Below, piece after piece: positions 2,051-49,269 of a stretch of 64,000 bases of DNA. The position numbers and the translations under genes are program-made. Below the pieces are notes generated by a model. That model was given only the letters and a program-made list of their open reading frames with translations, made no database searches and was not told where the DNA came from. The first letter of the stretch is position 1, and every line of letters starts with the position of its first letter. This DNA comes from an uncultured Acidimicrobiia bacterium (GTDB lineage: Bacteria > Actinomycetota > Acidimicrobiia > Spongiisociales > JAENVV01): positions 529,518-593,517 of the forward strand of contig CAVOQP010000010.1 in assembly GCA_963698385.1 (NCBI GenBank), read 5' to 3'.

Positions 2051-2090
2051 CCGATGAGCGTACCGCCCGACTCCCCGATGCGCGAGGGGC

Positions 2091-2564
2091 ATGCGAGACT
2101 CGCCCCGTGACCTCCCAACCCCTCCCAATCGGCGCTTACCGGGTGACCGACCGACTGGCCGCGGGGCCCTTCCCGCGCGGGGTGGTCGAGCAGATCGAAG
2201 CCAGGCGGGAGCCCGTCACTTCGTCGACCTCACCGGACTCGGAAAATCCTACGAAGTGCTCCTCGCCGACGGAAGCAGCCGGGCGGCCTTCCCCATCGCT
2301 GACTTCTCGACGCCCACCAGCGAGCACATGGTCACGATCCTCGACGATATCGATCAGCACCTCGACGAGGGCGTCTACCTGCATTGTGGGGCAGGCATCG
2401 GGCGCACCGGGACCGTGGTCGGGTGCTGGCTGATCCGCCACGGCCTTGCCACCCGCGACGATTGGCAACAGGTGCTGGCCGGCCTACGGCCATCAGGCGC
2501 TCCCCCTTCCCCCGAGACTGCGGCCCAACGGGCATTCGTCTCGGCCTGGGAGCCCGGGCGCTGA
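2091..2564 (+). CDS. Protein-tyrosine / dual-specificity phosphatase with CX5R motif HCGAGIGRTG; probable frameshift, with the N-terminal part in another frame from about 2107
   Basis: Frame 0 carries VDLTGLGKSYEV...VYLHCGAGIGRTGTVVGCWL, the PTP/DSP signature. Frame +1 (2107..~2205) carries the typical DSP N-terminus PLPIGAYRVTDRLAAGPFPRGVVEQIEA. The frame 0 N-terminus is R/P-rich low-complexity. Confidence 0.6.
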   Translation: MRDSPRDLPTPPNRRLPGDRPTGRGALPARGGRADRSQAGARHFVDLTGLGKSYEVLLADGSSRAAFPIADFSTPTSEHMVTILDDIDQHLDEGVYLHCGAGIGRTGTVVGCWLIRHGLATRDDWQQVLAGLRPSGAPPSPETAAQRAFVSAWEPGR

Positions 2565-2604
2565 GGAGGCTCATTCGCTACGGTTCACCGACCGCGGAGG
2601 CCAC

Positions 2605-10318: not shown

Positions 10319-11141
10319 CCGCCAACTCCGCCATCTGGCACTCCTCGAAGGCCCGGTAGGCCCGGTTCCTCGCCGCGAGGAGGTCGAAGTCGACGAGGTG
10401 CGCATCGAACTCGGGCCCATCCACGCAGGCGAACCTCGTCTCTCCGCCGACGCTCACCCGGCACCCGCCGCACATCCCGGTGCCGTCGACCATGATCGGG
10501 TTGAGGGACGCCACGGTGGGAATGCCCGCATCCCGGGTGGCCCCGGCCACCGCCGCCATCATCGGGATCGGGCCCACGGCGAACACGTGGTCGATCGGCC
10601 CAGCGGCCATGCGATCAAGGAGGGCGTCCGTCACGAGCCCTTTCCTGCCCGACGAGCCGTCATCGGTGGTCACTGTGAGGGTGTCGGAAGCGGCCGCCAT
10701 CTCGGCGAGGAGCAGCAGCAGCGACGCAGTCCGGGCGCCGACGATCGCGTGCACGGTGTTGCCCGCCGCCCGCAGCGCTTTGGCCACGGGGAGGGCGATC
10801 GCCGAGCCCACGCCTCCGCCGACCACCACGCAGGTGCCGAATCGGCGGATCTCGGTCGGCTTCCCGAGGGGGCCGAGGACGTCGGCCAGGTGGTCCCCCA
10901 CCGCGAGATCGGCGAAACCCTGGGTCGTGGCGCCGAGCATCTGGACCACGAGTGTGATCGTCCCCTCCTGGGGGTCGTGGTCGCTGATCGTGAGTGGGAT
11001 GCGCTCACCCGCGTCAGTGACGCGGACGATGACGAACTGGCCCGGCCGGGCGCCGTGGGCAACCCGGGGCGCCTCGACGACACATCGCACGACGTCGGGG
11101 CCGATGCTCGTCGCCTCCCGTATCCGGAAACGGTGTTCCAT
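10311..11141 (-). CDS. Ferredoxin-NADP(+) reductase-like FAD/[2Fe-2S] subunit (NfnA/SudB/PyrK-like)
   Basis: FAD/NAD-binding fold and C-terminal CGGCRV 2Fe-2S motif. Translationally coupled to the GltD-like gene. Confidence 0.8.
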   Translation of the reverse strand: MEHRFRIREATSIGPDVVRCVVEAPRVAHGARPGQFVIVRVTDAGERIPLTISDHDPQEGTITLVVQMLGATTQGFADLAVGDHLADVLGPLGKPTEIRRFGTCVVVGGGVGSAIALPVAKALRAAGNTVHAIVGARTASLLLLLAEMAAASDTLTVTTDDGSSGRKGLVTDALLDRMAAGPIDHVFAVGPIPMMAAVAGATRDAGIPTVASLNPIMVDGTGMCGGCRVSVGGETRFACVDGPEFDAHLVDFDLLAARNRAYRAFEECQMAELADA

Positions 11142-11206
11142 GCCCCAAGGCTATCGGGAGCTCCGGGGCCGGCCGTCAACCACCCCGGGCCGAACCAGCG
11201 ACGGTG

Positions 11207-27583: not shown

Positions 27584-27601
27584 TTGTGAAACGGATTACA
27601 A
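27584..27601 (+). promoter_or_regulatory. Candidate Rex-type operator TTGTGAA-ACGG-ATTACAA upstream of nsrR-nosZ
   Basis: 12/14 match to the Rex operator consensus TTGTGAA-N4-TTCACAA, 33 nt upstream of the nsrR start. It could alternatively be the Rrf2 site. Confidence 0.35.
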
Positions 27602-28026: not shown

Positions 28027-28044
28027 GGAGAAGGAGAACCCCTC

Positions 28045-30048
28045 ATGTCCGGACTGGACACGCCGGTGGAGCGTAAGCGCATCACGTGGCAAACCCTGCT
28101 GGCGATTGCCAGCGTGCTCATGCTGATCTTCGCGGCCTGTACGTCAGGTTCGAGTACTGCAGATGTCGGTGCCGACATCATCGAGGCTCGCGGCCTGACC
28201 GATGCCGACGTCGAAGCTGCCCTGAAGACCTTCACCCCTTCGGGTACCCACGACGAATACCTCCTGTTCGCCTCCGGCGGACACGGTGGCCAGATCGGCA
28301 TCATCGGTGTGCCGTCGATGCGCCTCCTGAAGGTGATCGCCGTGTTCACACCCGAACCCTGGCAAGGCTGGGGCTACGGCGACCTGAAGACAGAAGAAGT
28401 CCTGTCCTCCGGCGACGTCAACGGCATCGAGGTCCGTTGGGCCGACACCCACCACCCCGCCCTCTCCGAGACCGGCGGCGACTACGACGGCCAGTTCGTA
28501 TTCATCAACGACAAAGCCAACGCCCGCATCGCGGTCGTCGATCTTCGCGACTTCGAGACGAAGCAGATCGTCAAGAACCCCATCGCCATCAATGACCACG
28601 GCGGGACCATGGTCACCCCCGACACCGACTGGATCATCGAAGGCGGGCAGTACGCCACACCGCTGGCCGGTGAGTGGGCACCGATCGAGGACTACGTCGA
28701 GTCCTACCGCGGCATGGTGACGTTCTGGAAGTTCGATCGGGATAGCGGCCGCGTCCTCGAGGACCAGTCCTTCGCCATGGAACTCCCGCCCTACTGGCAG
28801 GACCTGTGTGACGCCGGCAAGCTCGTCTCCGACGGATGGGTGTTCTGCAACTCCTTCAACGTCGAGATGGCAACCGGTGGTGTCGAGGACGGCAACCCGC
28901 CATTCGAGGCCGGTGCATCGGCGCGCGACAACGACTATCTCCATGTCATCAATCTCGAGGCCGCCGTGGCAGCGAGGGATGCTGGCAAGACCGTCGACAT
29001 GAACGGCTTCCCCGTCATCGAGCTGCAAACCAGCATCGACGAGGGCCTGCTCTACTTCGTGCCAGAGCCCAAGAGCCCACATGGTGTCGACATCACCCCC
29101 AAGGGCGACTACCTCGTCATCTCCGGCAAGCTCGACCCGCACAGCACGATCTACTCATTCGAGAAGATCCAGCAGGCGATCGCGGACGAGAACTGGACCC
29201 CCGACGAGTTCGGTGTGCCGGTCCTCGACTTCGACGCGGTGCTCGAGGCCCAGGTCGAGTTGGGACTCGGTCCGCTCCACACCCAGTTCGACGACAAGGG
29301 CTACGCCTACACGTCGCTCTTCCTCGACTCGGCCGTCGCACGTTGGACCCTCGGGCCCAACTACGACCCACCTGAGGAGCCATGGACCCTGGTGACGAAG
29401 ACCCCGGTGCAGTACAACGTCGGTCACCTTGTCACCGCAGAAGGAGACACCGTCTCACCGGACGGCAAGTACCTGGTGTCACTGAACAAGTGGGCGATCG
29501 ACCGCTTCGCCGACGTCGGCCCGCTGCTCCCGCAGAACTTCCAGCTGGTCGACATCTCCCAAACCGGAGAGACGATGCCGGTGATCTACGACATGCCGAT
29601 CGGGTGGGGCGAACCGCACTACGCGCAGATCATCAAGGCTGACAAGCTGAACGCATGGCAGACGTACCCAGAGGTCGGCTTTGACCCCGGCACGATGTCG
29701 GTTGACCCCGACGCCCCCCAGTTGGGCAACGAGCGGATCGAGCGCAATGGCACCGAAGTGGAGATCTGGATGACCGCCATCCGCTCACACTTCACGCCCG
29801 AGCATGTCTCGCTCAAGCAGGGTGACCATGTCATCTGGCACATCACCAACGTGGAAACGTCCCACGACGCCACCCACGGCTTCGCGCTGCCAGGCTACAA
29901 CGTCAACCTCTCACTGGAACCAGGCGAAACGGCGTCGTTCGAGTTCGATGCAGTGAACGCAGGTGTGTACACCTACTACTGCACGGAATTCTGCTCCGCC
30001 CTCCACTTGGAGATGACGGGATACCTCATGATCGAGCCAAACTCCTAA
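28045..30048 (+). CDS. nosZ: Nitrous-oxide reductase, Sec/lipoprotein-type signal (clade II-like)
   Basis: Seven-blade propeller region and C-terminal CuA cupredoxin motif HGF...CTEFCSALHLEM. N-terminus has lipobox LIFAAC and no twin-arginine. Confidence 0.9.
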   Translation: MSGLDTPVERKRITWQTLLAIASVLMLIFAACTSGSSTADVGADIIEARGLTDADVEAALKTFTPSGTHDEYLLFASGGHGGQIGIIGVPSMRLLKVIAVFTPEPWQGWGYGDLKTEEVLSSGDVNGIEVRWADTHHPALSETGGDYDGQFVFINDKANARIAVVDLRDFETKQIVKNPIAINDHGGTMVTPDTDWIIEGGQYATPLAGEWAPIEDYVESYRGMVTFWKFDRDSGRVLEDQSFAMELPPYWQDLCDAGKLVSDGWVFCNSFNVEMATGGVEDGNPPFEAGASARDNDYLHVINLEAAVAARDAGKTVDMNGFPVIELQTSIDEGLLYFVPEPKSPHGVDITPKGDYLVISGKLDPHSTIYSFEKIQQAIADENWTPDEFGVPVLDFDAVLEAQVELGLGPLHTQFDDKGYAYTSLFLDSAVARWTLGPNYDPPEEPWTLVTKTPVQYNVGHLVTAEGDTVSPDGKYLVSLNKWAIDRFADVGPLLPQNFQLVDISQTGETMPVIYDMPIGWGEPHYAQIIKADKLNAWQTYPEVGFDPGTMSVDPDAPQLGNERIERNGTEVEIWMTAIRSHFTPEHVSLKQGDHVIWHITNVETSHDATHGFALPGYNVNLSLEPGETASFEFDAVNAGVYTYYCTEFCSALHLEMTGYLMIEPNS

Positions 30049-37786: not shown

Positions 37787-37805
37787 ATGTGAGATCTCTC
37801 ACAAT
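37787..37805 (+). promoter_or_regulatory. Candidate Rex operator ATGTGAG-ATCT-CTCACAA (core TGTGAGA-TC-TCTCACA, a perfect palindrome) overlapping the rex promoter
   Basis: 11/14 match to TTGTGAA-N4-TTCACAA. A TAGAGT -10-like hexamer at 37811-16 lies 6 nt before the rex ATG. Confidence 0.5.
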
Positions 37806-37822
37806 TGGTCTAGAGTGTGGCC

Positions 37823-38434
37823 ATGACCAAGCATGCGATCCCCCGGGCGACGGTTCGGCGCCTCCCCCGTTACCTGGGATTCCTCGAAGGGATGGAGCGA
37901 AACACCGTCTCCTCCAAACAGTTGGCGCTCGGCTCCGCAACCACCGATGCCATCGTCCGTCGGGACATGCTCGAGATGGGCATCTCGGGAACCCGCGGCG
38001 TTGGCTATGACGTGGCCACCCTCATCGACGTGTTCCGTCGGGAGTTGGGGGTCGAGAAGGACCGGCGCATCGTCATCATTGGGGTCGGCCACCTGGGCAC
38101 GGCGCTCGCCAACTACGCAGGGTTCGACTCCGCCGGGTTCCACGTCATCGGCCTCTACGACACTGCACCCCGCAAGATCGGCTCCATTGAGTCGGGCCAT
38201 GTCGTCCAGTCACTCGAGGAGTTGGCCGATGATGTCGCCGATGTCAGCGTCGAGACGATCGCCATCCTCGCCGTCCCCGCGAAGGCAGCCCAAACCGCCG
38301 CCGAGGCCGTGGTGCGAGCCGGGGTCAAGTCGATCCTGAACTTCGCTCCCAGGACGCTGCACCTCGACCCCTCCATCACGGTTCGACACGTGGACCTGTC
38401 AATCGAGCTGCAGCTGCTCTCGTACTTCTCGTAG
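37823..38434 (+). CDS. rex: Redox-sensing transcriptional repressor Rex
   Basis: ATVRRLPRYLGFLE wHTH, then Rossmann GVGHLGTALANY. Confidence 0.85.
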   Translation: MTKHAIPRATVRRLPRYLGFLEGMERNTVSSKQLALGSATTDAIVRRDMLEMGISGTRGVGYDVATLIDVFRRELGVEKDRRIVIIGVGHLGTALANYAGFDSAGFHVIGLYDTAPRKIGSIESGHVVQSLEELADDVADVSVETIAILAVPAKAAQTAAEAVVRAGVKSILNFAPRTLHLDPSITVRHVDLSIELQLLSYFS

Positions 38435-38572: not shown

Positions 38573-40405
38573 ATGACGTGGATCCCTGACGCGGCGACGG
38601 TGGCCGGGGCCAACCTCACTCGAGCAATCGCCGATCGTGGACTCGAGTCGTATGCCGACTTCCATGCGTGGTCGGTGACCGACCGAGCAGCGTTCTGGAC
38701 CGACGTGGTCGACCGACTCGGGATCGCCTTTGCCCGTGGTCCTGCCGCTGTCCTCGGGTCCGGGGATCCACTCGATCCGCAGTGGATGCGCGGCGCGCTC
38801 CTCAACATCGCCGAAAGCTGTTTCACGGGTGACCCCACCGGGACAGCCGTCATCCACGGGACCGGGACCACATGCACCCGGGTCACCTTCGGGAAGCTCC
38901 AACAGGATGTCTGGCGGTTCGCCAACGGACTCGACGCCCTCGGCCTCGGCCCCGGCGATCGGGTCGGAGTCGCCATGCCGATGACCTATCAGTCGGTGGT
39001 CGCCTATCTCGGCACGGTGTGGGCCGGCGGGACGGTCGTCTCGATCGCCGACTCGTTCGCACCTCCGGAGATCGCCACCCGGCTACGAATCGCTGATGCC
39101 CACCTCGTCGTCACCCAAGACCGGGTCGAGCGCGGCGGGAAGGAGCTCCCGATGGCGGCCAAGGTCTTGGCGGCCGGGGCCGAGCGGGCGGTCGTCGTCG
39201 ACACCGGTGGCCCGATCAGGTCGAGGCCCGGGGATCTCGACTGGACCGCGTTCATGGCGGATCCCACCGAACGCCCCGCGACCCGAACCGCGCCCCACCA
39301 CAGGACGAACATCCTCTTCTCGTCGGGTACCACCGGCGATCCAAAGGCGATCCCGTGGACCCAGGTGACCCCGATCAAGGCCGCCATGGACGGGTACTTC
39401 CACCAGGACATCCATGCTTCCGACGTCGTGGCCTGGCCGACGAACCTCGGATGGATGATGGGTCCGTGGCTCATCTACGCCACGCTCATCAACGGGGCCA
39501 CCATGGCCCTCCACGATGACGTGCCCACAGGCCATTCGTTCGCCGACTTCGTCGAGTCGGCGGGGGTCACGATCCTCGGCGTGGTCCCGAGCCTCGTCGC
39601 CTCGTGGCGAGCCACAGGTGTGTTGTGCGAGGCGGATTGGAGCCGGGTCCGACTCTTCAGCACAACAGGTGAAGCCTCGAAGGCGGCCGACATGGAGTGG
39701 CTGATGGAGGTTGGCGGGGGAAAACCGGTGATCGAGTACTGCGGTGGCACCGAGATCGGGGGCGGCTACCTCACTTCGACCGTACTCCACCCCTCGGTGC
39801 CCTCCCACTTCACCACTGCCGCCCTTGGCCTCGACCTGATGATCCTCGACGACAAGGGCCACCCGGGGGAGATCGGCGAGGTGTTCCTCGAACCACCTTC
39901 GATCGGGCTCTCGGAGACACTCCTCAACAGCGATCACTTCACCGTCTACCACGCGGAGGCACCTGCACTCGGCGGCCGCACCCTCCGCCGCCACGGGGAT
40001 GAGGTGATTCGCCTCCCTGACGGGACCTACCGAGTACTGGGGAGGGCGGACGACACGATGAACCTCGGCGGAATCAAGGTGGGGTCAGCGGAGCTCGAAC
40101 GGGCGATCGCCGATACCCCGGGCCTGGCGGACTGCGCCGCCGTCGCAGTGGCATCGGATGGGGGCGGCCCTGCCATGCTGGTGATCTTCGCCGTGGCCGC
40201 GACCGGGACAGACCCCGAGGAGCTGAGAACGGCATTCACGGTCGGGATCAGGGAACGACTCAATCCCCTCTTCAAGGTGGCGAGAGTGGTGATCGTCGAT
40301 GCGCTCCCGCGGACGGCATCAGGAAAGGTGATGCGCCGGGAGCTACGCGACCGGGCTGCTGTCCAGGACGAGAAGCCCCTCGCGGACGCAGACGCAGACG
40401 CCTAG
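38573..40405 (+). CDS. AMP-dependent synthetase/ligase (acetyl-/acyl-CoA synthetase family)
   Basis: FSSGTTGDPK AMP-binding motif, ...GRADDTMNLGGIKV, ...PRTASGKVMRR. Confidence 0.8.
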   Translation: MTWIPDAATVAGANLTRAIADRGLESYADFHAWSVTDRAAFWTDVVDRLGIAFARGPAAVLGSGDPLDPQWMRGALLNIAESCFTGDPTGTAVIHGTGTTCTRVTFGKLQQDVWRFANGLDALGLGPGDRVGVAMPMTYQSVVAYLGTVWAGGTVVSIADSFAPPEIATRLRIADAHLVVTQDRVERGGKELPMAAKVLAAGAERAVVVDTGGPIRSRPGDLDWTAFMADPTERPATRTAPHHRTNILFSSGTTGDPKAIPWTQVTPIKAAMDGYFHQDIHASDVVAWPTNLGWMMGPWLIYATLINGATMALHDDVPTGHSFADFVESAGVTILGVVPSLVASWRATGVLCEADWSRVRLFSTTGEASKAADMEWLMEVGGGKPVIEYCGGTEIGGGYLTSTVLHPSVPSHFTTAALGLDLMILDDKGHPGEIGEVFLEPPSIGLSETLLNSDHFTVYHAEAPALGGRTLRRHGDEVIRLPDGTYRVLGRADDTMNLGGIKVGSAELERAIADTPGLADCAAVAVASDGGGPAMLVIFAVAATGTDPEELRTAFTVGIRERLNPLFKVARVVIVDALPRTASGKVMRRELRDRAAVQDEKPLADADADA

Positions 40406-40758
40406 ATGTCCTTGTCCTGCTCTTGCTCCCACTTGCCCAAGGCCGTGAGGAACATGAAGAACAGGATCGTGGAGACGATCATCCAGCTGAGGGGGATGAT
40501 CCGGATCTCGAAGTTGTTGAGTCCTTCGAAGTTGGCCGGCTTGGGGCCCCGCGGGGCGTACATGACGAACAGAAGGGAGTTGATCGCCATCCACCCCGAC
40601 AGGCCTGCTCCAACGACGAGGAAGGCCAGTTTCTTGCCGAGATTGGTGGCGTTGATGAGGTACACCGACCCGTAGAACACGAGGATCGCCGACAGCACCA
40701 GGACGATGCCGGTGAACAGGACACTTGAGCTCAACAGCTCCCGCATGAGTTCTCGCAT
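40402..40758 (-). CDS. Small 3-TM membrane protein (last gene of the bc-complex operon)
   Basis: 118 aa and hydrophobic. Overlaps the stop of the upstream cytochrome c gene. Confidence 0.5.
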   Translation of the reverse strand: MRELMRELLSSSVLFTGIVLVLSAILVFYGSVYLINATNLGKKLAFLVVGAGLSGWMAINSLLFVMYAPRGPKPANFEGLNNFEIRIIPLSWMIVSTILFFMFLTALGKWEQEQDKDI

Positions 40759-42281
40759 CAGTTGCCTCCTCCGAGCGCTGGACCGCCCAAGGTGTCGCCC
40801 AGCAGGTATGTGGCCAGCAGGTCGAGGTCGGCCTGGGAGAGCAAACCACCGAACCCGGGCATGTACCCGCGGCCGATGCCGTTCACGCCGTAGGGCTGGC
40901 CCGACACGGAGCCCGAGGCGATGAAGCCGGCCAGGCTCACGGCGTCACCGAACTGGACCGTCGCCCTGGGTGGCAGCAACGATGGCCCGAACCCGCCGGC
41001 GCCGATCGGGCCCTGGAACGCCGCCCCGGCCGAGTATCCGGTGGTGTGACATCGCGAGCAGTTGGCGTTGAAGAGGTTGATGGCTCGTTGGGCCGAGGCG
41101 CGGTCGCCACTGAATGAAGCGTCCGCCACCGCATCGATGTCGACCTCCCACAGCGCACCTGAGATGGCGTCGGTCAAATAGTCGAGCCCACCCTGGAACC
41201 GCTCGAGGGTCCGGGCCTTGGTCTCGGCCGCCACCTCGAAGAGCTGGATCGTCTTGATGATTCTCGAGAAGTCGCCTTCCACGACGTGGCCGCCCTCGTC
41301 GGTGTAGCCGTGGAACACGTCGCCGTCGTCGGTGACCCCGTTCGTCCTTGGGTTCCGCGGGTCGAGGTCGAGGTCGGGTATCAGCACGGGCGTCACGCCG
41401 AGTACCTCGTACTCCTTGAGCCCGAGGGCTGCCACCTCGGCGAAGAGCCCGGGGAGGAGGTTCTCGGCATTGTCGGAGAGGCCGTCCCGGTCGACGTCGA
41501 CGCCGTCGTCCTCCGAGAGGGCCACGATCTTCTCACCGATGACAGAGAGGGCCGGGGCGAAGCGCCCCGCATCGTTGGCGAATGCGACCAGCGTCTGCTG
41601 GGATGCCAGCAGCGCGGCCGCCGCGTCGCCGCTTCCTTCGAGCCTGGCCTGGGCGACTGCCACGTCGCCTTCGATGAGGTTGAGCGCCTCGGCCTGGGTG
41701 AGTTGGACCGACTCGATGTAGTTGAGGAGGTCTTCGACCTCCTGGTCGTTGAGGGGTCCGCCCCCAGCGAGACCCCACGCCGGCATCGGGGTCCCCGGGC
41801 GCCCGTACTCGATCCAGAACTTGACCTCGTCGCGGCTGTACCGATACATGATCGTGTCGAGTCGGGGAGCCAGCCAACTGACAGCCACGTTGGACCGGCC
41901 CTCGACGAAGGAGGCCACGCCCCCGGACAGCCCCGGTCCATGACACCCGGCGCAGTCGAGTCCACCGTCGGCGGTGGTGGCCGCAGCCGCGGTCCCGCGC
42001 GCCAGCGACTCCGCCTCGAAGTCGTGGGCGAACCCGGCCTGGCGGTCGGTCTCACCGAGGAAGTACACCGGCATCGAGATGGCGAGGAAAGCAGCGAAGA
42101 TGACCGACCAGGCCAGGGCCTTGTCGAGTCGGGGACCCTCCAGTTCGTCGTTCGGCATCCCCGGGCGCAGGTTCGCCGGGACCTTCTCCTTGCCCTTCCC
42201 ACGCACGGAGCCGACGACCATGTACGACAACCAGGTGACGACCGCGACCGCGGCGAGCACCATGACGAGACTGTTCAGCAT
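40758..42281 (-). CDS. Membrane-anchored di-heme c-type cytochrome
   Basis: AAAGGAG RBS. N-terminal TM segment, then CAGCHG and CSRCHT heme motifs. Confidence 0.8.
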   Translation of the reverse strand: MLNSLVMVLAAVAVVTWLSYMVVGSVRGKGKEKVPANLRPGMPNDELEGPRLDKALAWSVIFAAFLAISMPVYFLGETDRQAGFAHDFEAESLARGTAAAATTADGGLDCAGCHGPGLSGGVASFVEGRSNVAVSWLAPRLDTIMYRYSRDEVKFWIEYGRPGTPMPAWGLAGGGPLNDQEVEDLLNYIESVQLTQAEALNLIEGDVAVAQARLEGSGDAAAALLASQQTLVAFANDAGRFAPALSVIGEKIVALSEDDGVDVDRDGLSDNAENLLPGLFAEVAALGLKEYEVLGVTPVLIPDLDLDPRNPRTNGVTDDGDVFHGYTDEGGHVVEGDFSRIIKTIQLFEVAAETKARTLERFQGGLDYLTDAISGALWEVDIDAVADASFSGDRASAQRAINLFNANCSRCHTTGYSAGAAFQGPIGAGGFGPSLLPPRATVQFGDAVSLAGFIASGSVSGQPYGVNGIGRGYMPGFGGLLSQADLDLLATYLLGDTLGGPALGGGN

Positions 42282-42300
42282 GTTGTCAGCTCCTTTCTCG

Positions 42301-43158
42301 TCAGATGCAGGACGGGCCCTGCGGGTACTTCACGGACTTACGGACGGCACGAGATGTCTCGATGATCTGGCCGGTGCTGATGATGAACCGGTTGCGATCG
42401 TTCACCGCCACGACGAAGCGGTCGAGGTTGCGAGGCGCCGGGCCGGCGATGTATTCACCGGCGGCGTTGTACTTCGATCCGTGGCAGGGGCACTCGAATC
42501 CCTGTGACGGTGTGCACCACGGGACCCGGCAGCCGAGGTGCACGCAGGTCTGGTAGAGGGCGACCAGGTTGTGGTCGACCGTCGAGTTTCCCTCGAACTG
42601 GGACCCGGTCACCGACTCCGGCAGCATTGGGATGACGTAGGCGCGGGCCTCCGGGAGGAACAGCGGGCTGATGGTCCCGTCGGCGTTGAGGACCTTGGCC
42701 AGGATCTCGTCGGCATCGCCACCATCGATGTCCGCCCCGAAGCCGCCCTTCACCTTCGGCCACATGAAGGCAAAGGCGCTCATCCCGAAACCGGCGAGGA
42801 AGGTCCCCCACATGGCAAGGAGGGCACGGTTCAGGAACATGCGGCGGGTGACGCCTTGCTCGTCGGGGGTGGCCTCGACGTAGTCCACGACGACGGGGGA
42901 CTCCTCGGCCACTTCGGTGAGGACCATCGTGTCGCCGGTCCCGGCGTCCGCCACGGCATCCGCCACTGCGTGCTCCTCGGCGACCTGGGCAGTGGCGATC
43001 ATCACCGGGACCTCGGAGCGCTTGTCGGCCTTGGCGGCCTTCTCGTCGACCCTCGCCTTCCAGCCCGGGTCGTTGCTCCGGCGGTAGGCAATCGTGAAGG
43101 CGGCCGCAGCAGCAAGGACGGCAACCGCCGCCAGCGCAATCGGGAGCAGGTCGGTCAT
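42301..43158 (-). CDS. Rieske [2Fe-2S] iron-sulfur subunit of a cytochrome bc/b6f-type complex
   Basis: CVHLGC...CPCHGS Rieske boxes with an N-terminal TM anchor. The long N-terminal extension of ORF 42301..43473 is rejected. Confidence 0.85.
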   Translation of the reverse strand: MTDLLPIALAAVAVLAAAAAFTIAYRRSNDPGWKARVDEKAAKADKRSEVPVMIATAQVAEEHAVADAVADAGTGDTMVLTEVAEESPVVVDYVEATPDEQGVTRRMFLNRALLAMWGTFLAGFGMSAFAFMWPKVKGGFGADIDGGDADEILAKVLNADGTISPLFLPEARAYVIPMLPESVTGSQFEGNSTVDHNLVALYQTCVHLGCRVPWCTPSQGFECPCHGSKYNAAGEYIAGPAPRNLDRFVVAVNDRNRFIISTGQIIETSRAVRKSVKYPQGPSCI

Positions 43159-43967
43159 CAGTGGCCTCCGAGGTCCGCGAAGTGGACCCAGTCCTTGAGA
43201 TCGTCGAAGAAGATCCCATCGTTCCACGGGTAGACGAAGTTGAAGCCCGGACCCCGGAAGAGGACACCGAACATCGTGAGCGTCGCCGCGCCCATCAGGA
43301 AGAACGTGAACATGAAGATCACGAACTTGCGATCGGATGGCTTGGTCGAAGGGTTCTTGTCGATGTAGGGCACGGCCATGAGCCCGAACAGACCGGTGAT
43401 GAGCGGGACCGACACACCTGCGACCGCAGGGTCGAAGTAGGAAAGGAGTTCCTGCAAGCCGAGGAAGTACCACGGGGCCTTCGACGGGTTGGGGGTGGCG
43501 TTGAAGTTCGCGGCCTCGAGCAGCGGAGCCTGGAGGATGGTCGAGAGAACGATGAGGATCCCGGTGACCGCGAGAAGAGCCGCGAACTCGATGATCATCA
43601 GGTGCGGCCAGGTGTTCACCTTGTCCTGGGGTTCGACCTTGGCCTGCTGAATCGCCTTGGCCTTGACGACGGTGAGGAGACGCTGGGTCCGCACACCCTC
43701 CGGGCCCGAGACCGCCGGGGCGACCGGGCGCACCGAGGTGGCTTTCGACGGGTCACCGGTCATCACCACTGCGGCAGGCACCGGTGCAGCCGCAGGAGCA
43801 GCCGCGACAGCCGGTGCCGGTTCCGCGGCGGGTACGGCCGCAACGGGCGCGGCAGTCGGGGGCGCTTCGCCCTTCAGTTGGGCCATCGCTTCCTCGACCG
43901 AGATGCCGAGTGCTTTCGCCTTGGCCTCCGCCGACCGGCGGAGTAGGTGTTCGGGGAGTTCAGCCAT
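43158..43967 (-). CDS. Cytochrome b C-terminal (subunit IV-like) protein with extra N-terminal cytoplasmic module
   Basis: PWYFLGLQELLSYF motif of cytochrome b6f subunit IV / cytochrome b C-terminus. N-terminus MAELPEHLLRRSAEAKAKALGISVEE resembles the N-termini of 47560 and 48343. Confidence 0.75.
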   Translation of the reverse strand: MAELPEHLLRRSAEAKAKALGISVEEAMAQLKGEAPPTAAPVAAVPAAEPAPAVAAAPAAAPVPAAVVMTGDPSKATSVRPVAPAVSGPEGVRTQRLLTVVKAKAIQQAKVEPQDKVNTWPHLMIIEFAALLAVTGILIVLSTILQAPLLEAANFNATPNPSKAPWYFLGLQELLSYFDPAVAGVSVPLITGLFGLMAVPYIDKNPSTKPSDRKFVIFMFTFFLMGAATLTMFGVLFRGPGFNFVYPWNDGIFFDDLKDWVHFADLGGH

Positions 43968-43979
43968 CGCACCTTCTCC

Positions 43980-44741
43980 TTACAGCGGCCCAGAGATGCC
44001 GCCATCCTTCCGGACACGCCAGAAGTGGACGGCCATGAAGATGACGATGATGAATGGGAAGAAGAGGACATGGAGCACGTACCAGCGGAGGAGGGTGTCG
44101 GCCGACACCACCGCCGAGCCCAGCAGGGTGAACTTCACCTGGCTCCCGAAGACCGGCACGAACGACGCCATGTTCGTTCCCACGGTGACGGCCCAGAGGG
44201 CCAACTGGTCCCACGGCAGGAGGTAGCCGGTGAAGGAGAGAAGGAGAGTGAGGAGCAGGAGCACGACGCCGACCACCCAGTTGAACTCGCGGGGCGGCTT
44301 GTAGGCACCGTGGTAGAAGACCCGGCTCATGTGGAGGAAGACCGTGAGCACCATGAAGTGGGCTCCCCACCGGTGCATGTTCCGCACGAGGGACCCGAAC
44401 GCCACGGAGGTCGAGAGCTCCTGGATGTCCTGGTAGGCAGCCTCGGCGGTCGGGGCGTAATAGAACATGAGGAAGATGCCGGTGATCGTCAGCAGGATGA
44501 AGAGGAAGAAGCTGAGGCCCCCGAGGCACAGGGTGTAGGAGAGCCGAACGCTGTGCCGCTTCACCTTGACCGGGTGGAGGTGATAGAGCACGTTGTTCAT
44601 GATCACGTAGGAGCGGTTGCGGGGGCTGTCCGTGTACCCCTTCTTGAAGGGGGACCCCGGCCGGAGGATCGAGTCCATGAGCGGACTGCCATGCAGGGCC
44701 GACGGAAGCTCTTTGACCTTGTTGAGGAGTTTCTGCACCAC
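43980..44741 (-). CDS. Cytochrome b6-like (N-terminal half of a split cytochrome b; bis-His heme b ligands)
   Basis: 4 TM with His pairs ([10 protein letters not shown], ...HVLFFPF...HFW). GTG start at VVQKLLNKV is an inference. Confidence 0.75.
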
Positions 44742-44746
44742 TGTTC

Positions 44747-45199
44747 TCACATCCCGCGAATGCCGTAGACGAACCCGTTCTTGTGGTCCCGCTCGCCCGA
44801 GTCGATCTCCCACGGGGCGGGGAGACCTTCCTGCTCGGCGGTGGCGGAGACCGAACCTTCGAACTTGCCGAGGGTGATCACGCCCGTGGGGCACCGGTCG
44901 ATGCAGAGCGCGCACCGGGTGCAGGTGTCCTCGTCCACGAGGAAGAAGCCGAACGCCTCGGGGTCATCGTGGGGATCGGCCACACCGGATGCATCGCGGA
45001 TGGCGTCGATCGAGAGGTAGTGGATGCACTTCCAGGGACAGATATCGACGCAGCCCTCACACAGGATGCATTCGGCTTGGTCGATGTGGAGGAACTGCTT
45101 GGGTCTGACCTGCTTGAGCAGGTAGTCGCCTTCGACCAGGGCGAGGGTGTAGTCGTCGCGGATCGGGGGGACTTCGAAGTAGACCTCGGTGCGGGCCAT
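44747..45199 (-). CDS. 2x[4Fe-4S] ferredoxin-type subunit
   Basis: [12 protein letters not shown] and [16 protein letters not shown] overlap with the upstream gene. Confidence 0.8.
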
Positions 45200-45831
45200 C
45201 AGGCGCCGGCCTTCTTCAGCGGGCGGCCATACGGGGAGATCGCATCGCCCTCGGCCACCCTCGGTGTCGTCTTCCCCCACCCCTGGATCTTGAAAGCGAA
45301 GTACAGGACCGCCGCCAGCGAGGCGAGGTGGTAGCCACCGAGGACCATGTCCTTGAGGGCTGCGTAGGAAATGCTGATCGGGTTGTTGAGCACGATCCAC
45401 TTGGGGATCGTGAAGGCGATCTTCTGGGAGGTGAAACCGAGGGGGCCCTGGGTGAGGTTCAGCCACTCGGACGGGATGACGCCCCACACGAGGATGAGTT
45501 CGATGAAGGCCAGCCAAGCTGCGAAGCCTGCCCGTGCCCACGTCATCGGCTTGTTGGCCACCCACTGCAGCGCGGCACCGGCCAGGAGGAACTGTGAACC
45601 GCCGATCGCCACCAACTGCCCGGCGGTGAAGACGACCCAGTGGCGGGGAACCCAGGTGAGGTAGGTCGCGAAGTGCTCCTCCCCGGGAGCCGTGCCATCG
45701 GGGGCGAGCCCGGCGTGGGCAAAGAAGATCCCGACCACCAACGCGCCGAAGCCCAACACCATGAGCGCCCACGCGATGCGTGAGCGTTGCTTGTCGGTGA
45801 GGTTGGCAAGTCGATGAATCAGTCGGTCCAT
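45199..45831 (-). CDS. Hypothetical membrane protein (about 5 TM), first gene of the bc-complex operon
   Basis: MDRLIHRLANLTDKQRSRIAWALMVLGFGALVVGIFFA... Confidence 0.45.
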   Translation of the reverse strand: MDRLIHRLANLTDKQRSRIAWALMVLGFGALVVGIFFAHAGLAPDGTAPGEEHFATYLTWVPRHWVVFTAGQLVAIGGSQFLLAGAALQWVANKPMTWARAGFAAWLAFIELILVWGVIPSEWLNLTQGPLGFTSQKIAFTIPKWIVLNNPISISYAALKDMVLGGYHLASLAAVLYFAFKIQGWGKTTPRVAEGDAISPYGRPLKKAGA

Positions 45832-46153
45832 GCGAGCCGTCGATGCCTGTCTTGGGTCGGTGTTCCTGTTCGCGGCGATGCCCGTGGGAGGCCAGGGCGT
45901 CGGCGCCATGTTTAGCAGAATCACCCTACCGACATCGAAACGGGATCAAGGTCCGGATCGCCGTCGAGGACGGGTCCCGGGGCGTCGGAGGCCGGGACCG
46001 AGCGGCGGCTGGAAGGCGGGTTTTGACGCTCCCCATCCGGAGAGCGAGAATGCGTGACGCCGGCGCGGGTTCGCGTCGGGCGAGGGAGCATGAAGGAGTC
46101 GCGGACCGGTAGGCTGCGGCCGTCTCCGACCGAGGAAAGAGAAGGAGTTGGGG

Positions 46154-47563
46154 TTGGCCACTGACACAGAAGCGGCACACGCGGTGGATGGTGCCACCGT
46201 CGTGACCCGCTGGGCGCTGGTGGCGGGCGCTGTCCTGATCGCCTTGGCCGCCTTCCTCCACTTCAGCGCATGGCTCTCGCTGGTCTTCCCGCCGGTCTTC
46301 GGCGGGTTGGGATTCGCGCAATTCGGACGACTGAAACCCATGGCCGATGCCGTCCTGATGTTCGGTGGCTTCTACTTCGTCAATACCGGCGCCCTCTACA
46401 TCCTCCTCCCGCGCCTCACCGGCACCACACTGCGGGATGTCGGCCTCGCGCGTGCCAACACCCTGTGGACGCTGCTCGTGGGCGTCGCCTCGGTCGTCGC
46501 CGTGGGTATCGGACTCGGCGACGGAAGGGCCGGCTTCGAGTTCCCGCTCATCCTCGACGCCGCCTATCTCACAACCCTCTTCGTCCCGGCCTGGATCACC
46601 CGGCGTGCATTCTCGACTCGAACCGAGGACTCGCTCCACCCGACCGTGTGGGCCCTGATGACGGGGTTCCTCGCCCTGGCGGTTGCCCTCGTTGTCGCCA
46701 ACTTCCCCCTCACGGAGGCCACCGGAGGTTGGATCCAAGTGGCGTTCGGACGCGGCCTCGTGCTGTGGACCTGGGTGCTCGGGTCGGGCGTCGGCATCGC
46801 CTGGTACGTGGTGCCCAAGGCATCCGGTCGTCCGCTGTTCAGTCGTCAACTGGCTCAGATCGTCGTCTTCTCGATGCTTCTCCCACCCGCGGTCGCAGGG
46901 CTGGCCGGGCTGGCATTCGGCCCGGTCGCCGATTGGGCCGAGACCATCGGCGTCGTCTTCCGATTCTCCCTACTGGTCCCCGCGCTCGCAGTGCCGGCCG
47001 GGATCCTCGGCACCATCAACGGGGCCGATGGGCCACGGATCGCCTCGTCGCCCGCCGTTCGTACTGCGCTCGCCGGCTCTTGGCTGCTCGCCGGAGGCGG
47101 CGTCGCCAGCGCGCTCTCCGCCTTTCCCTACGTCCAGTCCGTTGTCGGACTCACGACCTTCGAGGACGGAACCATGGCGCTCCTGGTAGGAGCCGCCACG
47201 CTCTTCGCCGCTTCGTTCATCTACCACTGCCTCCCGGAGGTGACCGGCAAACCCCTCTTCTCGACGACGTTGGCCATCGACCACATGAAGCTCGTGCTGT
47301 GGGGGTCGGGCTTGACTGCCCTCTTCCTCTGGTACGCCGGGATCTACTCCGGTGCCGGGTTCCGGGGCGGCGCCCTCGGGGGACTGTGGACGGCGGTCGG
47401 TGACGGATTCGGTGATGCCACGGACGGGGCGATCCCCCTCTACATGATCGCACTCCTCGGGATGGCGTTGGTGGCGGCCGGCCAGGTCGCCTTCATGATC
47501 AACGTCCTCGGCACGACCCGCGGCGGTGCGGCCACGACCGAGTCCGAGGAGGTGGCCGCATGA
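46154..47563 (+). CDS. 12-TM membrane protein with three internal 4-TM sequence repeats; occupies the ccoN-like position but lacks the heme-copper-oxidase His ligand set
   Basis: GAAGGAG RBS. 12 hydrophobic segments. Repeated motif Y.LLPRLTGTTL / WYVVPKASGRPLFSRQL / YHCLPEVTGKPLFSTTL, one per third. Only 4 His in the TM region and no HH pair. Its stop overlaps the ATG of the FixO-like gene. Confidence 0.55.
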   Translation: MATDTEAAHAVDGATVVTRWALVAGAVLIALAAFLHFSAWLSLVFPPVFGGLGFAQFGRLKPMADAVLMFGGFYFVNTGALYILLPRLTGTTLRDVGLARANTLWTLLVGVASVVAVGIGLGDGRAGFEFPLILDAAYLTTLFVPAWITRRAFSTRTEDSLHPTVWALMTGFLALAVALVVANFPLTEATGGWIQVAFGRGLVLWTWVLGSGVGIAWYVVPKASGRPLFSRQLAQIVVFSMLLPPAVAGLAGLAFGPVADWAETIGVVFRFSLLVPALAVPAGILGTINGADGPRIASSPAVRTALAGSWLLAGGGVASALSAFPYVQSVVGLTTFEDGTMALLVGAATLFAASFIYHCLPEVTGKPLFSTTLAIDHMKLVLWGSGLTALFLWYAGIYSGAGFRGGALGGLWTAVGDGFGDATDGAIPLYMIALLGMALVAAGQVAFMINVLGTTRGGAATTESEEVAA

Positions 47564-48336
47564 GTGAGTACCTCGCAGCCGCGGCCGCCAACATGGGCAT
47601 GCCCGAGTCACTCGTGATGCGCTCCGCCGAGGCCAAGGCCAAGGCTGGCGGTGTCACCGTCGAGGACCTCCTCAGGGAATGGGCGGGCGGGGAACCGGCG
47701 ACTGCGTCCGCGCCTCCGTCCGCGCCCGCGTCTGCAGCTTCGTCTGCCCCGGAGCCTGTGTCTGCGGCTGCTCCAGCCGCTCCCGCCGCGCCGGTGGTCG
47801 TCACAGCCGCTGCGACACGACGGCACGTCGTGGCCCGCAAGGACCCGGATGCTGCCCCCCTCCTCGTAGGCGCCCGACAGGGACACATCCGGATGCTCTT
47901 GACCATCATGACGGTGCTCGTCGTCGGCTCAGCCCTCGGGGCGCTCCTGCCGACCCAGGCCGCCCGCCAGGACGTGAACAACGCCATCGGCTCACAACCC
48001 GACTACACCGACCAAGCCATCAGCGGGCGGGACATCTACCTGGCCGAGGGGTGCTGGACATGCCACACGATGGTGGTCAGGGCCACCGCCACCGACTACG
48101 GCCTCGGCAAGGTCACCACCCCGAAGGACGTTGCGCCGGTTGCCGGTGAGTCGCTCGGGGTGCGGAGGATCGGTCCCGACCTCGCCCACATCGGAAGTCG
48201 CCGAGACCCGGCCTTCATCTTCAACTTCCTCGTCGACCCCGGCTCGGTGGCCGAAGGTGCCCGGCACCCCGGCTATGCGTTCCTTTCCGAAGACGAACTC
48301 GGCTCGCTGACCGCGTTCCTGATCGAGACGAAGTGA
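47560..48336 (+). CDS. ccoO: FixO/CcoO-like membrane-anchored mono-heme cytochrome c (cbb3 oxidase subunit II family) with N-terminal extension
   Basis: GRDIYLAEGCWTCHT...RRIGPDLAHIGSR...PGYAFL aligns with the FixO motifs GRNIYIREGCYLCHS...KRTGPDLARVG...PGYAFL. Carries about 100 extra N-terminal residues. Confidence 0.8.
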   Translation: MSEYLAAAAANMGMPESLVMRSAEAKAKAGGVTVEDLLREWAGGEPATASAPPSAPASAASSAPEPVSAAAPAAPAAPVVVTAAATRRHVVARKDPDAAPLLVGARQGHIRMLLTIMTVLVVGSALGALLPTQAARQDVNNAIGSQPDYTDQAISGRDIYLAEGCWTCHTMVVRATATDYGLGKVTTPKDVAPVAGESLGVRRIGPDLAHIGSRRDPAFIFNFLVDPGSVAEGARHPGYAFLSEDELGSLTAFLIETK

Positions 48337-48342
48337 GTGCCG

Positions 48343-49269
48343 ATGAGTGAATACCTCGCAGCCGCGGCCGCCAAGATGGGCATGCCCGAGTCACTCGTCA
48401 TGCGCTCCGCCGAGGCCAAGGCCAAGGCCGGTGGCGTCACCGTCGAGGACCTGCTCCGCGAATGGGCGGGCGGGGAAGCAGCGTCAGCAGGAAAGCCCGA
48501 GCCCGGGCCCGAGCCCAAGGTGCCGGCCGAGCCGGCGTCCGAGGAGGCGGCAGCACCTGCCGCTCCGTCTGTGCCGGTCGCCGAGGCAGGGCCGGTCGAG
48601 GTGGTCTACGAGACCCTGCCGACCCCGGCGACCGTGACCCCCGAAGAAGCCATGGCCTGGGACCAGGTGACCACCATCGCTTCGGACGACGTGCGGGAGC
48701 GACCCGGGTCGGTGATCCCCCGCTGGCTGGCAGCGGCGTTCGTCATCATTCCAGTGCTGGCCCTCGGCTACCTCTTCATGAACACCGATGGCCTCACGTG
48801 CGGTGAGTCCGGCCTCCTTGCCTCGGACTTCGAAGGCAACCTCGCCAACTGCGACATGACTGCGTACGTGCCGGGAGGAGGGTCCGAGGGCGCGCTCGTC
48901 ACTGCAGCTTTCGCCGAAGGACAGGGGCTCTATTCGTCGTGCGTGTCGTGCCACGGAGCGAGCGGGGAAGGTGGTGTGGGCCCCGCATTCGGGGACGTGA
49001 CCACGACCTTTGCCGCCTGCTCCGACCACATCGAGTGGGTCAAGGTTGGCTCGGCGGGTTGGCCGACCGGGACATACGGGGACATTGGGAAACCGGTCGT
49101 CGGGGGCATGCCGGGGTTCTTCGCATCGATGTCCGAGGACCAACTCCAGTCCATCGCCCTCTACGAGCGGGTCCAGTTCGGTGGGGAAGCACTCACCGAC
49201 GCCGGGGTCAACTGCGGCATCGTCGAGGCTGAACCCGCCGAGGGCGAAGCTCCCGCTGAGGACGCCTGA
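48343..49269 (+). CDS. Membrane-anchored mono-heme cytochrome c with the same N-terminal module
   Basis: N-terminal 47 aa about 90% identical to 47560. A/P linker, TM segment, CVSCHG heme motif. Confidence 0.75.
   Translation: MSEYLAAAAAKMGMPESLVMRSAEAKAKAGGVTVEDLLREWAGGEAASAGKPEPGPEPKVPAEPASEEAAAPAAPSVPVAEAGPVEVVYETLPTPATVTPEEAMAWDQVTTIASDDVRERPGSVIPRWLAAAFVIIPVLALGYLFMNTDGLTCGESGLLASDFEGNLANCDMTAYVPGGGSEGALVTAAFAEGQGLYSSCVSCHGASGEGGVGPAFGDVTTTFAACSDHIEWVKVGSAGWPTGTYGDIGKPVVGGMPGFFASMSEDQLQSIALYERVQFGGEALTDAGVNCGIVEAEPAEGEAPAEDA

Follow-up and report, generated by a model that had tools for sequence, protein, structure and literature searches.

Gene Content and Organization of the Operon

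The 64,000-nucleotide stretch of DNA analyzed here (called the window below, with positions counted from its first letter) is part of contig CAVOQP010000010.1 of an uncultured Acidimicrobiia bacterium, is 67% GC, and carries between positions 40402 and 45924 seven tightly packed minus-strand genes, which include those of a Rieske/cytochrome b complex and of a two-cluster ferredoxin. The seven open reading frames (ORFs) were confirmed from the ORF list and by reading the sequence, and all have the high third-position GC that is typical of real genes. Read along the minus strand, their order is memA, a 2×[4Fe-4S] ferredoxin (Fd), cytochrome b6, a subunit IV-like protein (SUIV), a Rieske protein, a di-heme cytochrome c and memB. 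Pfam and NCBIfam name five of the seven proteins, and the products of the first and last genes, memA and memB, are unmatched. This is the order that an earlier note on this DNA, made from the letters alone, had given; ORFs, Pfam matches and motifs agree with it, and the split of cytochrome b into b6 and SUIV is likewise borne out by separate genes.

The first gene, memA (45199–45831), encodes a 210-amino-acid orphan membrane protein with four predicted transmembrane (TM) helices; its ORF is open as far as a GTG at 45924, and we favor the ATG at 45831 as its start since the homologues are 208–210 amino acids long. It is followed by the Fd gene (44747–45199; 150 amino acids with both CxxCxxCxxxCP motifs; Pfam Fer4, 2e-11) and by the genes for cytochrome b6 (43980–44750; four TM helices; Pfam Cytochrome_B, 9e-48), SUIV (43158–43967; three TM helices; Pfam Cytochrom_B_C, 1e-6), the Rieske [2Fe-2S] protein (42301–43158; Pfam Rieske, 4e-9) and the di-heme cytochrome c (40758–42281; 507 amino acids with two CxxCH motifs; Cytochrome_CBB3/Cytochrom_C, 1e-13). 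The last gene, memB (40402–40758), encodes a second orphan membrane protein, 118 amino acids long. For b6 an alternative GTG start is present at 44741, and its nearest homologues are 253 amino acids long.

The earlier note had described these genes as joined by four ATGA or short overlaps. The tight coupling holds, but the exact form does not, since the memA/Fd, SUIV/Rieske and di-heme cytochrome c/memB junctions all read TGATG with a 1-nt overlap. Between Fd and b6 the GTG start overlaps the TGA stop codon; with the later GTG as start, the two genes would lie 5 nt apart. The ferredoxin gene is translationally coupled on both sides. The two remaining junctions have short spacers with clear Shine-Dalgarno sequences, one of 12 nt between b6 and SUIV that contains AGGAGAAGG and one of 19 nt between the Rieske and di-heme cytochrome c genes that contains AAAGGAG.

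The Core Subunits

The heme ligands of cytochrome b6, H125/H139 and H227/H242, have the b6-type spacing of 14 in helix B and 15 in helix D and are conserved in 77 sequences, and the protein is predicted to carry hemes bL and bH. Its CxGG motif, TLC75LGG, is invariant in the orthologue alignment; heme ci is bound through this motif in b6f and in Bacillus, and on this basis Cys75 probably carries a covalent heme ci; a C-terminal ten-residue stretch is also conserved across the orthologues. Among curated families the best match is NCBIfam cytb_ExtP, whose cut-off of 290 bits is passed with 305.9 bits, and the b6 model PRK03735 gives 218 bits. The actinobacterial QcrB model NF050120 gives 114 bits against a cut-off of 500 and so fails, which upholds the earlier statement that the architecture is unlike that of canonical QcrCAB. 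Among solved structures the window b6 comes closest to the cytochrome b6 chains of b6f complexes (168 bits, compared with 84 bits for mycobacterial QcrB), and it is 53–54% identical to the APWY-type cytochromes b of two more distant loci, L082 and L093, whose other genes are described below.

Cytochrome b6 also has an N-terminal extension, predicted to lie on the cytoplasmic side, that includes an invariant ten-residue stretch with the sequence HLHP (residues 57–66; 44553–44582, minus strand) and one more histidine. HLHP is common to the APWY-type cytochromes b of loci L082, L083, L086, L092 and L093.

In SUIV the Qo motif is NPSKAPWYF, in which APWY replaces PEWY; it is invariant in 68 orthologues, across which NPSKAPWYFLGLQELL is conserved as well. 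SUIV scores 56.6 bits with NCBIfam ExtQ, below the cut-off of 150, and has no heme motif. Its N-terminal extension of 115 amino acids is cytoplasmic and consists of a PEHLLRRSAEAKAKALG module followed by an Ala/Pro-rich linker.

The Rieske protein begins with an extra N-terminal TM helix that is followed by a twin-arginine (Tat) signal-anchor with a conserved TRRxF motif. Its cluster-binding sequence CVHLGC...CPCHGSKY is conserved. At least 98% of sequences have S at +2 and Y at +4 behind CxCH, and by the published S-Y rule this would be a high-potential center. Its closest NCBIfam model is that of b6f PetC, under whose cut-off it falls.

In the di-heme cytochrome c both heme motifs (CAGCH and CSRCH) and the methionine ligands in MP are conserved, two predicted N-terminal hydrophobic segments form a membrane anchor, and a linker of ~200 amino acids separates the heme domains. 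It has no QcrC-type NCBIfam match. It is predicted to be the electron exit on the outer (p) side, and with its two conserved CxxCH motifs it is the di-heme cytochrome c that the earlier note had described. The long linker contains an acidic DxDxDGxSDxxE motif, DVDRDGLSDNAE (residues ~255–278; 41450–41520, minus strand), that resembles calcium-binding loops and is partly conserved in the orthologues.

On the strength of the defining motifs and the family scores, we assign the complex to the APWY clade; as judged from these features, it is a b6-type (split) Rieske/cytochrome b complex of that clade.

The Ferredoxin and Its Relatives

The eight cysteines of the two Fd cluster motifs (C44/47/50/54 and C93/96/99/103) are invariant in 18 diverse family members, as are PPxRxDY near the N-terminus, PKQFLHI ahead of the first cluster motif and the tail APWxxDxGxRDxKNG at the C-terminus. 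Neither a signal peptide nor a TM segment is predicted for Fd, which places it in the cytoplasm (n-side). In Pfam and NCBIfam it has only Fer4-type matches, and neither a Fer4_20 domain nor an FAD/NAD(P) domain is present. A look-up of its exact sequence returned no record.

A profile search with Fd among 1.8 billion representative proteins found one full-length Fd family cluster, followed by more distant small ferredoxins and by the C-termini of ~600-amino-acid proteins. The latter are GltD-like oxidoreductases with a Fer4_20 domain, an FAD/NAD(P)-binding domain and a C-terminal two-cluster domain. Fd aligns with the C-terminal domains of six such GltD-ferredoxin fusions at 35–44% identity and 63–79 bits in a single segment that spans the long insert between both cluster motifs. 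We considered whether generic Fer4 similarity could account for these matches and rejected it, since individual polyferredoxin domains give only 35–42 bits with Fd, about half as much. From its sequence, Fd appears to correspond to the two-cluster C-terminal domain of GltD-type subunits, minus the flavin module.

Four of the six sampled fusions adjoin APWY-type Rieske/cytochrome b genes, in four different arrangements: fusion-Rieske-long cytochrome b-multi-heme cytochrome c (L082), fusion-Rieske (L090), SUIV-fusion-multi-heme cytochrome c (L091) and fusion-b6-SUIV-Rieske-di-heme cytochrome c (L093), the last of which has the same order as the window. Three of the four distant small ferredoxins (30–37% identity) are encoded in x-Fd-b6-SUIV-Rieske-cytochrome c-x clusters of other lineages; two distant Fd-b6 loci, L086 and L087, are from metagenome-assembled genomes (MAGs) labeled Actinomycetota. 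The distant Fd-b6 clusters adjoin cytochrome c maturation genes and a gene for the redox regulator Rex, or caa3 oxidase and heme A synthesis genes; the distant cluster L083 has a Rex gene beside it.

The Membrane Proteins MemA and MemB

MemA belongs to no Pfam or NCBIfam family, and its homologues were seen only in Acidimicrobiia, where they are annotated as "hypothetical"; when these homologues were compared with Pfam, the sole match was a sub-cut-off one to DUF7139 by one homologue. Its C-terminal SPYGRPL motif is invariant. An AlphaFold2 model of MemA is confident (pLDDT 86) and consists of four long helices plus a small hairpin, for which a Foldseek search of the PDB found no match (best E-value 0.65). 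MemB has no Pfam match even at E-values up to 10, and neither does an N-terminal motif that SUIV shares with two proteins of the neighboring gene cluster (below). In the distant Fd-b6 clusters L083, L086 and L092 the N-terminal regions of the downstream ORFs are homologous to MemB.

Conservation across the Acidimicrobiia

To place the operon among its relatives, Fd was compared by tblastn with a collection of one genome per species, which gave at least 509 confirmed stretches, and the best 80 loci were examined. Most of these are labeled Acidimicrobiia or Acidimicrobiaceae; the rest have broader labels, and two are labeled Acidobacteriota. Genes were counted by tblastn with the window proteins, and the denominators are the loci whose contig reaches far enough. 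memA lies upstream of Fd in 79 of 79 loci, and b6 (73/73), SUIV (67/67), Rieske (63/63), di-heme cytochrome c (57/57) and memB (54/54) are equally constant; all seven genes have the same order and orientation wherever the contig allows. Since it recurs in every one of the 80 species-level loci, as far as the contigs extend, this gene arrangement is not due to chance. The tight linkage also agrees with the earlier assertion that the ferredoxin belongs with the complex. Median identities to the window proteins are 84% for b6, 71% for Fd, 58% for MemB, 50% for Rieske and 40% for the cytochrome c, so that within the cluster only b6 is better conserved than Fd. The named closest homologues of b6 and Fd are almost all from Acidimicrobiia MAGs, and a complete 3.48-Mb Acidimicrobiia chromosome has the same ten genes (these seven and the three of the divergent cluster described below).

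The published KEGG gene table for one order of the class, UBA5794, lists the b6-type cytochrome b K03887 in 80.6% of genomes, compared with 5.1% for qcrB (K03891), 4.1% for qcrA, 1.0% for qcrC and 2% for K03888; the proteobacterial CYTB appears in none of the gene-count rows displayed. The 80-locus synteny and this table together show that the operon encodes the standard complex III of the Acidimicrobiia and not an add-on. The alternative pathway that the earlier note had proposed does not survive these findings, as the same complex is standard in 80 loci and K03887 far outnumbers K03891 in UBA5794. That note had also named what would overturn its own reading, namely that the source lineage has this architecture as its standard bc complex and that the ferredoxin gene is unrelated to the complex; the first half turned out to be the case and the second did not.

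Comparison with Known Rieske/Cytochrome b Complexes

That a split cytochrome b occurs in this lineage has been on record since 2014, when Ilumatobacter was named among the few actinobacteria that have one, and as the only such member of the Acidimicrobidae (Kao and Hunte 2014, PMC4122944). To the APWY clade belong delta-proteobacterial sequences, Geobacter ExtP, and relatives from planctomycetes, Chloroflexi and Nitrospirae. In the same survey the clade is taxonomically mixed in a way that is consistent with ancient gene transfer, and has Rieske proteins with a Mid+ to high potential signature (S-F or S-Y after CxCH) (PMC4122944). The clade is probably the same as "subfamily G" of Dibrova et al. 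(PMC5600118), although the equation is ours. The window complex shares with it the split cytochrome b, the CxGG motif, the APWY Qo motif and the mid-to-high-potential Rieske signature. It differs in that its CxGG motif reads LCLGG where WCMGG is common in the clade, and in that a whole aerobic class has it as its sole or principal complex III, in contrast to one of several copies in an anaerobe.

A parallel to a cytoplasmic iron-sulfur partner is found in the anammox bacterium Kuenenia, in whose Rieske/cytochrome b complexes one subunit is an NAD(P) oxidoreductase (Kuste4569–4574 and Kustd1480–1485; PMC12954380; PMC5600118) and for which delivery of the low-potential electron to the cytoplasm has been proposed; Rieske/cytochrome b complexes with cytoplasmic oxidoreductase subunits are expressed there (PMC5600118). 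In the models of both complexes from a 2025 study, the oxidoreductase sits on the cytoplasmic side, four Fe-S clusters in a row connect the heme bH/ci region with FAD, and an extra heme b between the cytochrome b monomers is held by a near-N-terminal histidine (PMC12954380). High Rieske potentials were measured in the same study, which argued that bifurcation could lower the potential of the second electron enough for NAD(P)+ reduction (PMC12954380). By analogy with these models, we infer that the two-cluster domain would be the membrane-proximal end of the Fe-S chain, and a histidine of the HLHP stretch of the window b6 may be the counterpart of the extra inter-monomer heme ligand in these AlphaFold3 models.

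In both types the genes of a b6-type core are accompanied by one for a cytoplasmic Fe-S protein, a likeness that is drawn through the metagenome-sampled GltD-like proteins (35–44% identity), which have the same architecture as Kuenenia's own but are not those proteins. The window Fd differs in lacking the Fer4_20 and FAD/NAD(P) domains and is a two-cluster stub only. The electron exit here is a di-heme cytochrome c, whereas in the anammox type it is multi-heme or HAO-like cytochromes; SUIV has three helices here and five there, and the host here is an actinobacterium with N2O reductase genes.

With the b6f complexes of cyanobacteria and chloroplasts the window complex shares the split b6/SUIV, the cysteine for heme ci, histidines in b6-type spacing, the sequence RK(D/Q)G(G)ISGPL at the C-terminus and the S-Y signature of the Rieske protein. 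Unlike b6f, it has no genes for cytochrome f or PetG/L/M/N in its cluster, its exit is a di-heme class I cytochrome c, and its Qo motif is APWY instead of PEWY. Soluble ferredoxin has long been proposed as the electron donor to heme ci in b6f cyclic electron flow; it is a transient soluble partner there, whereas a dedicated ferredoxin is encoded in the operon here.

The actinobacterial QcrCAB (the bcc part of the bcc-aa3 assembly of Mycobacterium and Corynebacterium) has in common with the window complex its phylum, the expected menaquinol substrate, a membrane-bound di-heme cytochrome c as the exit, here a predicted one, instead of a soluble cytochrome c, and a Rieske protein with more than one TM helix before the Tat motif. 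QcrB, however, is unsplit, ~540 amino acids long and without CxGG, its motif is PDWY, and no ferredoxin accompanies it. The Firmicute b6c complexes (Bacillus QcrABC) and their heliobacterial counterparts resemble the window complex in the split cytochrome b, the heme-ci cysteine and the use of menaquinone by Gram-positive hosts, but they have PDWY or PEWY motifs, a low Rieske potential and no cytoplasmic Fe-S subunit, and in Bacillus QcrABC subunit IV is fused to cytochrome c. The description "Firmicute/heliobacterial-like" in the earlier note was therefore imprecise for an APWY complex with such a subunit.

A reading as a Geobacter Ext complex, which NCBI naming suggests, was also considered and rejected. 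NCBI names the Acidimicrobiia b6 homologues P0057, P0071, P0085, P0089 and P0119 "selenite/tellurite reduction operon b-type cytochrome ExtP", since their scores pass the Geobacter-derived equivalog model. The ExtO/ExtP/ExtQ proteins of Geobacter sulfurreducens ExtMNOPQS do form a Rieske/b6/SUIV-like core, but the Geobacter cluster is ferredoxin-free and further includes outer-membrane parts and the multi-heme cytochromes ExtM, ExtN, ExtS and ExtKL; the window operon encodes no multi-heme cytochromes, and its SUIV falls below the ExtQ cut-off. Since only the Rieske/b6/SUIV core is common to both clusters, we regard the ExtP naming as an over-transfer.

The Divergent CcoN-Like Cluster and Other Neighbors

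Three plus-strand genes diverge from the operon: those for a CcoN-like protein with 12 TM helices (46148–47563; Pfam COX1), a FixO/CcoO-like mono-heme cytochrome c (47560–48336; Pfam FixO) and a membrane-anchored third cytochrome c (48337–49269). The intergenic region between memA and the CcoN-like gene (45832–46147) presumably holds the promoters of both operons; it contains one plus-strand sigma-70-like match (46023–46051), and scans for terminators and promoters gave nothing above background. The head-to-head layout is kept in 69 of 70 loci. The CcoN-like gene itself was found in 69 of 70, the FixO-like gene in 59 of 59 and the third cytochrome c gene in 51 of 52.

The CcoN-like protein aligns over its full length with Pseudomonas stutzeri CcoN (3mk7_A). 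At the positions that we take to be those of the six CcoN histidine ligands of heme b, heme b3 and CuB, it has A66, R202, A251/G252 or gaps, and no histidine is conserved in 75 Acidimicrobiia orthologues. By its sequence it looks like a cofactor-less "pseudo-oxidase". The FixO-like protein keeps its CxxCH.

SUIV, the FixO-like protein and the third cytochrome c have in common a ~35-amino-acid cytoplasmic motif at the N-terminus, PExLxxRSAEAKAKAxGxxVE (43869–43967, minus strand; 47560–47694 and 48343–48477, plus strand), which in all three is followed by an Ala/Pro-rich linker and a TM helix. For each protein, a strict pattern detects it in roughly one half to three quarters of the orthologues, and it may be a docking or assembly module. 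The ligand-less CcoN-like protein and this shared motif hint at a larger assembly. The first parts of the FixO-like and third cytochrome c genes (47560–47700 and 48343–48483, plus strand) are identical at 130 of 141 DNA positions, far above the rest of both genes, which points to gene conversion or to an N-terminal module that was duplicated recently.

Downstream of the operon lie a plus-strand gene for an AMP-dependent ligase (38573–40405), whose stop codon overlaps that of memB on the opposite strand (40402–40405), and beyond it the plus-strand gene of a Rex-type redox-sensing regulator (37817–38434; Pfam Put_DNA-bind_N and CoA_binding). Rex is a neighbor in 49 loci and a geranylgeranyl-reductase-like gene in 42. 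None of the 81 related loci has the ligase gene, whereas the Rex and reductase-like genes beyond it are conserved; the ligase gene is therefore a lineage-specific insertion, and the spacing to the nos cluster is particular to this genome. That cluster (NosZ at 28027–30048, then NosD, NosF-like and NosL, to 34443) ends ~6 kb from the operon, and the earlier note was right both in this distance and in the divergence from the CcoN-like/FixO-like cluster that starts at 46148. For its suggested quinol:NosZ link no support was found: the conserved neighbors are the CcoN-like cluster, Rex and the geranylgeranyl-reductase-like gene, and no nos genes were seen in the 8-kb flanks of the related loci, which fall short of the nos distance in the window and are thus uninformative either way.

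The divergent promoter region contains no Rex operator-like palindromes (TTGTGAA-N4-TTCACAA). Two were found elsewhere, both on the plus strand, one directly upstream of rex (37787–37804, with three mismatches) and one ~430 bp upstream of nosZ (27584–27601, with two mismatches). This is weakly above chance (2 found against 0.31 expected, and 5 of 100 shuffles reach 2).

Farther away, a minus-strand GltD-like protein (518 amino acids; Fer4_20 and FAD/NAD(P) domains) is encoded beside a PyrK-like protein with a DHODB Fe-S domain (8897–11150). At 2–5451 there are two large neighbors, a 738-amino-acid protein on the minus strand that runs off the window start and a 1005-amino-acid protein on the plus strand; both have an adenylate/guanylate cyclase domain near the N-terminus, and the larger also has an AAA_16 domain.

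Proposed Function and Alternatives

We consider it probable, though by no means certain, that the operon encodes the standard complex III of the Acidimicrobiia with Fd as a subunit that acts as an electron port to the cytoplasm, and we leave the direction of that port uncommitted. The enzyme would be the ordinary respiratory menaquinol:cytochrome c oxidoreductase of the class, the quinone presumably being menaquinone by the chemotaxonomy of the class; Fd, MemA and MemB would most likely be stoichiometric subunits, and the di-heme cytochrome c would take the place of cytochrome c1 or f and of the soluble carrier. In the general bc/b6f scheme oxidation of the quinol at the Qo site sends one electron to the Rieske protein and the other through heme bL to heme bH/ci. 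Applied to the proteins encoded here, menaquinol would be oxidized at Qo, one electron would pass through the Rieske protein and the di-heme cytochrome c to terminal acceptors, and the second would cross the membrane through hemes bL and bH/ci. Fd would dock on the cytoplasmic face beside bH/ci, and its two clusters would form an electron port between the bH/ci site and a cytoplasmic partner.

By analogy with the anammox proposal, the port most likely lets low-potential electrons from a bifurcating Qo reaction leave the membrane, although the opposite flow, which would deliver electrons to the Qi site, is equally conceivable. A high-potential Rieske protein combined with a menaquinol donor means that the low-potential branch could be very reducing, which favors exit to a cytoplasmic acceptor. 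If the port ran in reverse, it would amount to a hard-wired version of the ferredoxin-to-heme-ci route that has been proposed for b6f cyclic flow. The stronger proposal, that a permanently attached Fd makes the enzyme a bifurcating menaquinol:cytochrome c plus ferredoxin oxidoreductase, we put forward as rather unlikely but worth stating. If it were true, the downhill electron to the high-potential Rieske protein would drive the second across the membrane onto the [4Fe-4S] clusters, and abundant aerobic actinobacteria would obtain low-potential reducing power from respiration and might hand it to an NfnAB-like enzyme encoded in the window. On this view the ten genes, with the ligand-less CcoN-like module and the N-terminal motif of three subunits, may build a respiratory supercomplex not described before. 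The GltD-like/PyrK-like pair resembles NfnAB or SudAB, which are ferredoxin-linked NAD(P)H oxidoreductases, and it could be a cytoplasmic partner for such a port.

Several points weigh against this explanation. The FAD/NAD(P) module of the anammox proposal is absent from the operon and no cytoplasmic partner was identified. The physical association of Fd with the complex and its docking site are predictions, as is heme ci binding in the APWY clade. No member of that clade had been biochemically characterized as of the 2014 survey (PMC4122944). Two of the six GltD fusions and one of the four distant small ferredoxins are not encoded beside cytochrome b, so this type of two-cluster domain is not exclusive to Rieske/cytochrome b complexes. 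The AlphaFold2 model of Fd, built from an 18-sequence alignment, is poor (pLDDT 40), and the apparent lack of a second bc complex derives from the gene table of one order and not from the source genome.

The alternative that survives best is that Fd is a co-transcribed helper, either a maturation factor or a redox or oxygen sensor, and that the complex runs a plain Q cycle; we think this unlikely. As a maturation factor Fd might, for example, supply reductant for the covalent attachment of heme ci or for cofactor insertion, and since the maturation of heme ci in non-cyanobacterial bacteria is not understood, there is room for such a role. The operon encodes no FAD/NAD(P) module or other partner for a port, Firmicute and cyanobacterial b6-type complexes are known to function without such a subunit, and MemA and MemB could be assembly factors too. 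Against this, Fd is better conserved than any other protein of the cluster except b6, which would be unusual for an assembly factor, its counterpart domain in related complexes would lie at the end of a modeled electron wire that is nearest the membrane, and in L093 a GltD-ferredoxin fusion holds the same first-gene place directly upstream of b6.

It is a good deal less probable that Fd and the membrane proteins serve the divergent CcoN-like/FixO-like/third cytochrome c module, or that Fd is a structural part of a ten-gene supercomplex. The ten genes are conserved together, and the N-terminal motif that SUIV has in common with two products of the divergent cluster points to a shared partner or to assembly in concert; but the distant Fd-b6-SUIV-Rieske-cytochrome c clusters keep Fd and have no CcoN-like cluster in the fetched flanks, and Fd is coupled to b6 and not to the divergent operon.

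The least probable account, which we discount almost entirely, is that of an extra, laterally acquired Firmicute/heliobacterial-like complex that provides an alternative quinol:cytochrome c or quinol:NosZ route beside QcrCAB: the nos cluster does end 6 kb away in this genome, the cytochrome b is nearer to b6/ExtP than to actinobacterial QcrB, and the mixed taxonomy of the clade in the published tree is consistent with ancient transfer, but the same-order cluster is present in all 80 loci, qcrB, qcrA and qcrC occur in 5%, 4% and 1% of the genomes of one Acidimicrobiia order, the conserved neighbors are Rex and the CcoN-like cluster instead of nos genes, the absence of the ligase gene in relatives makes the nos spacing specific to this genome, and the Firmicute complexes use PDWY and have no ferredoxin subunit.

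Significance

The split b6 of this lineage and the presence of cytoplasmic Fe-S partners in the clade were already known. In the literature that we searched we found no description of the ferredoxin-containing Acidimicrobiia operon, of a ferredoxin-only version as the universal complex III of an abundant aerobic class, or of its two conserved orphan membrane proteins and head-to-head ligand-less CcoN-like module. The analysis also corrects a misleading automatic annotation, that of the Acidimicrobiia b6 as ExtP.

Soils, fresh water, oceans and wastewater commonly harbor Acidimicrobiia, yet the complex III of these bacteria usually gets no more mention than a KEGG hit. Here a whole class emerges with a b6-type enzyme. 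Its ferredoxin looks like a minimal form of the cytoplasmic oxidoreductase arm that has been proposed for NAD(P)H-making bifurcation in anammox bacteria, and it mirrors the debated ferredoxin-to-heme-ci contact of b6f. Cultured aerobic Acidimicrobiia could thus be a simpler system in which to test the ideas about both the anammox arm and the b6f contact.

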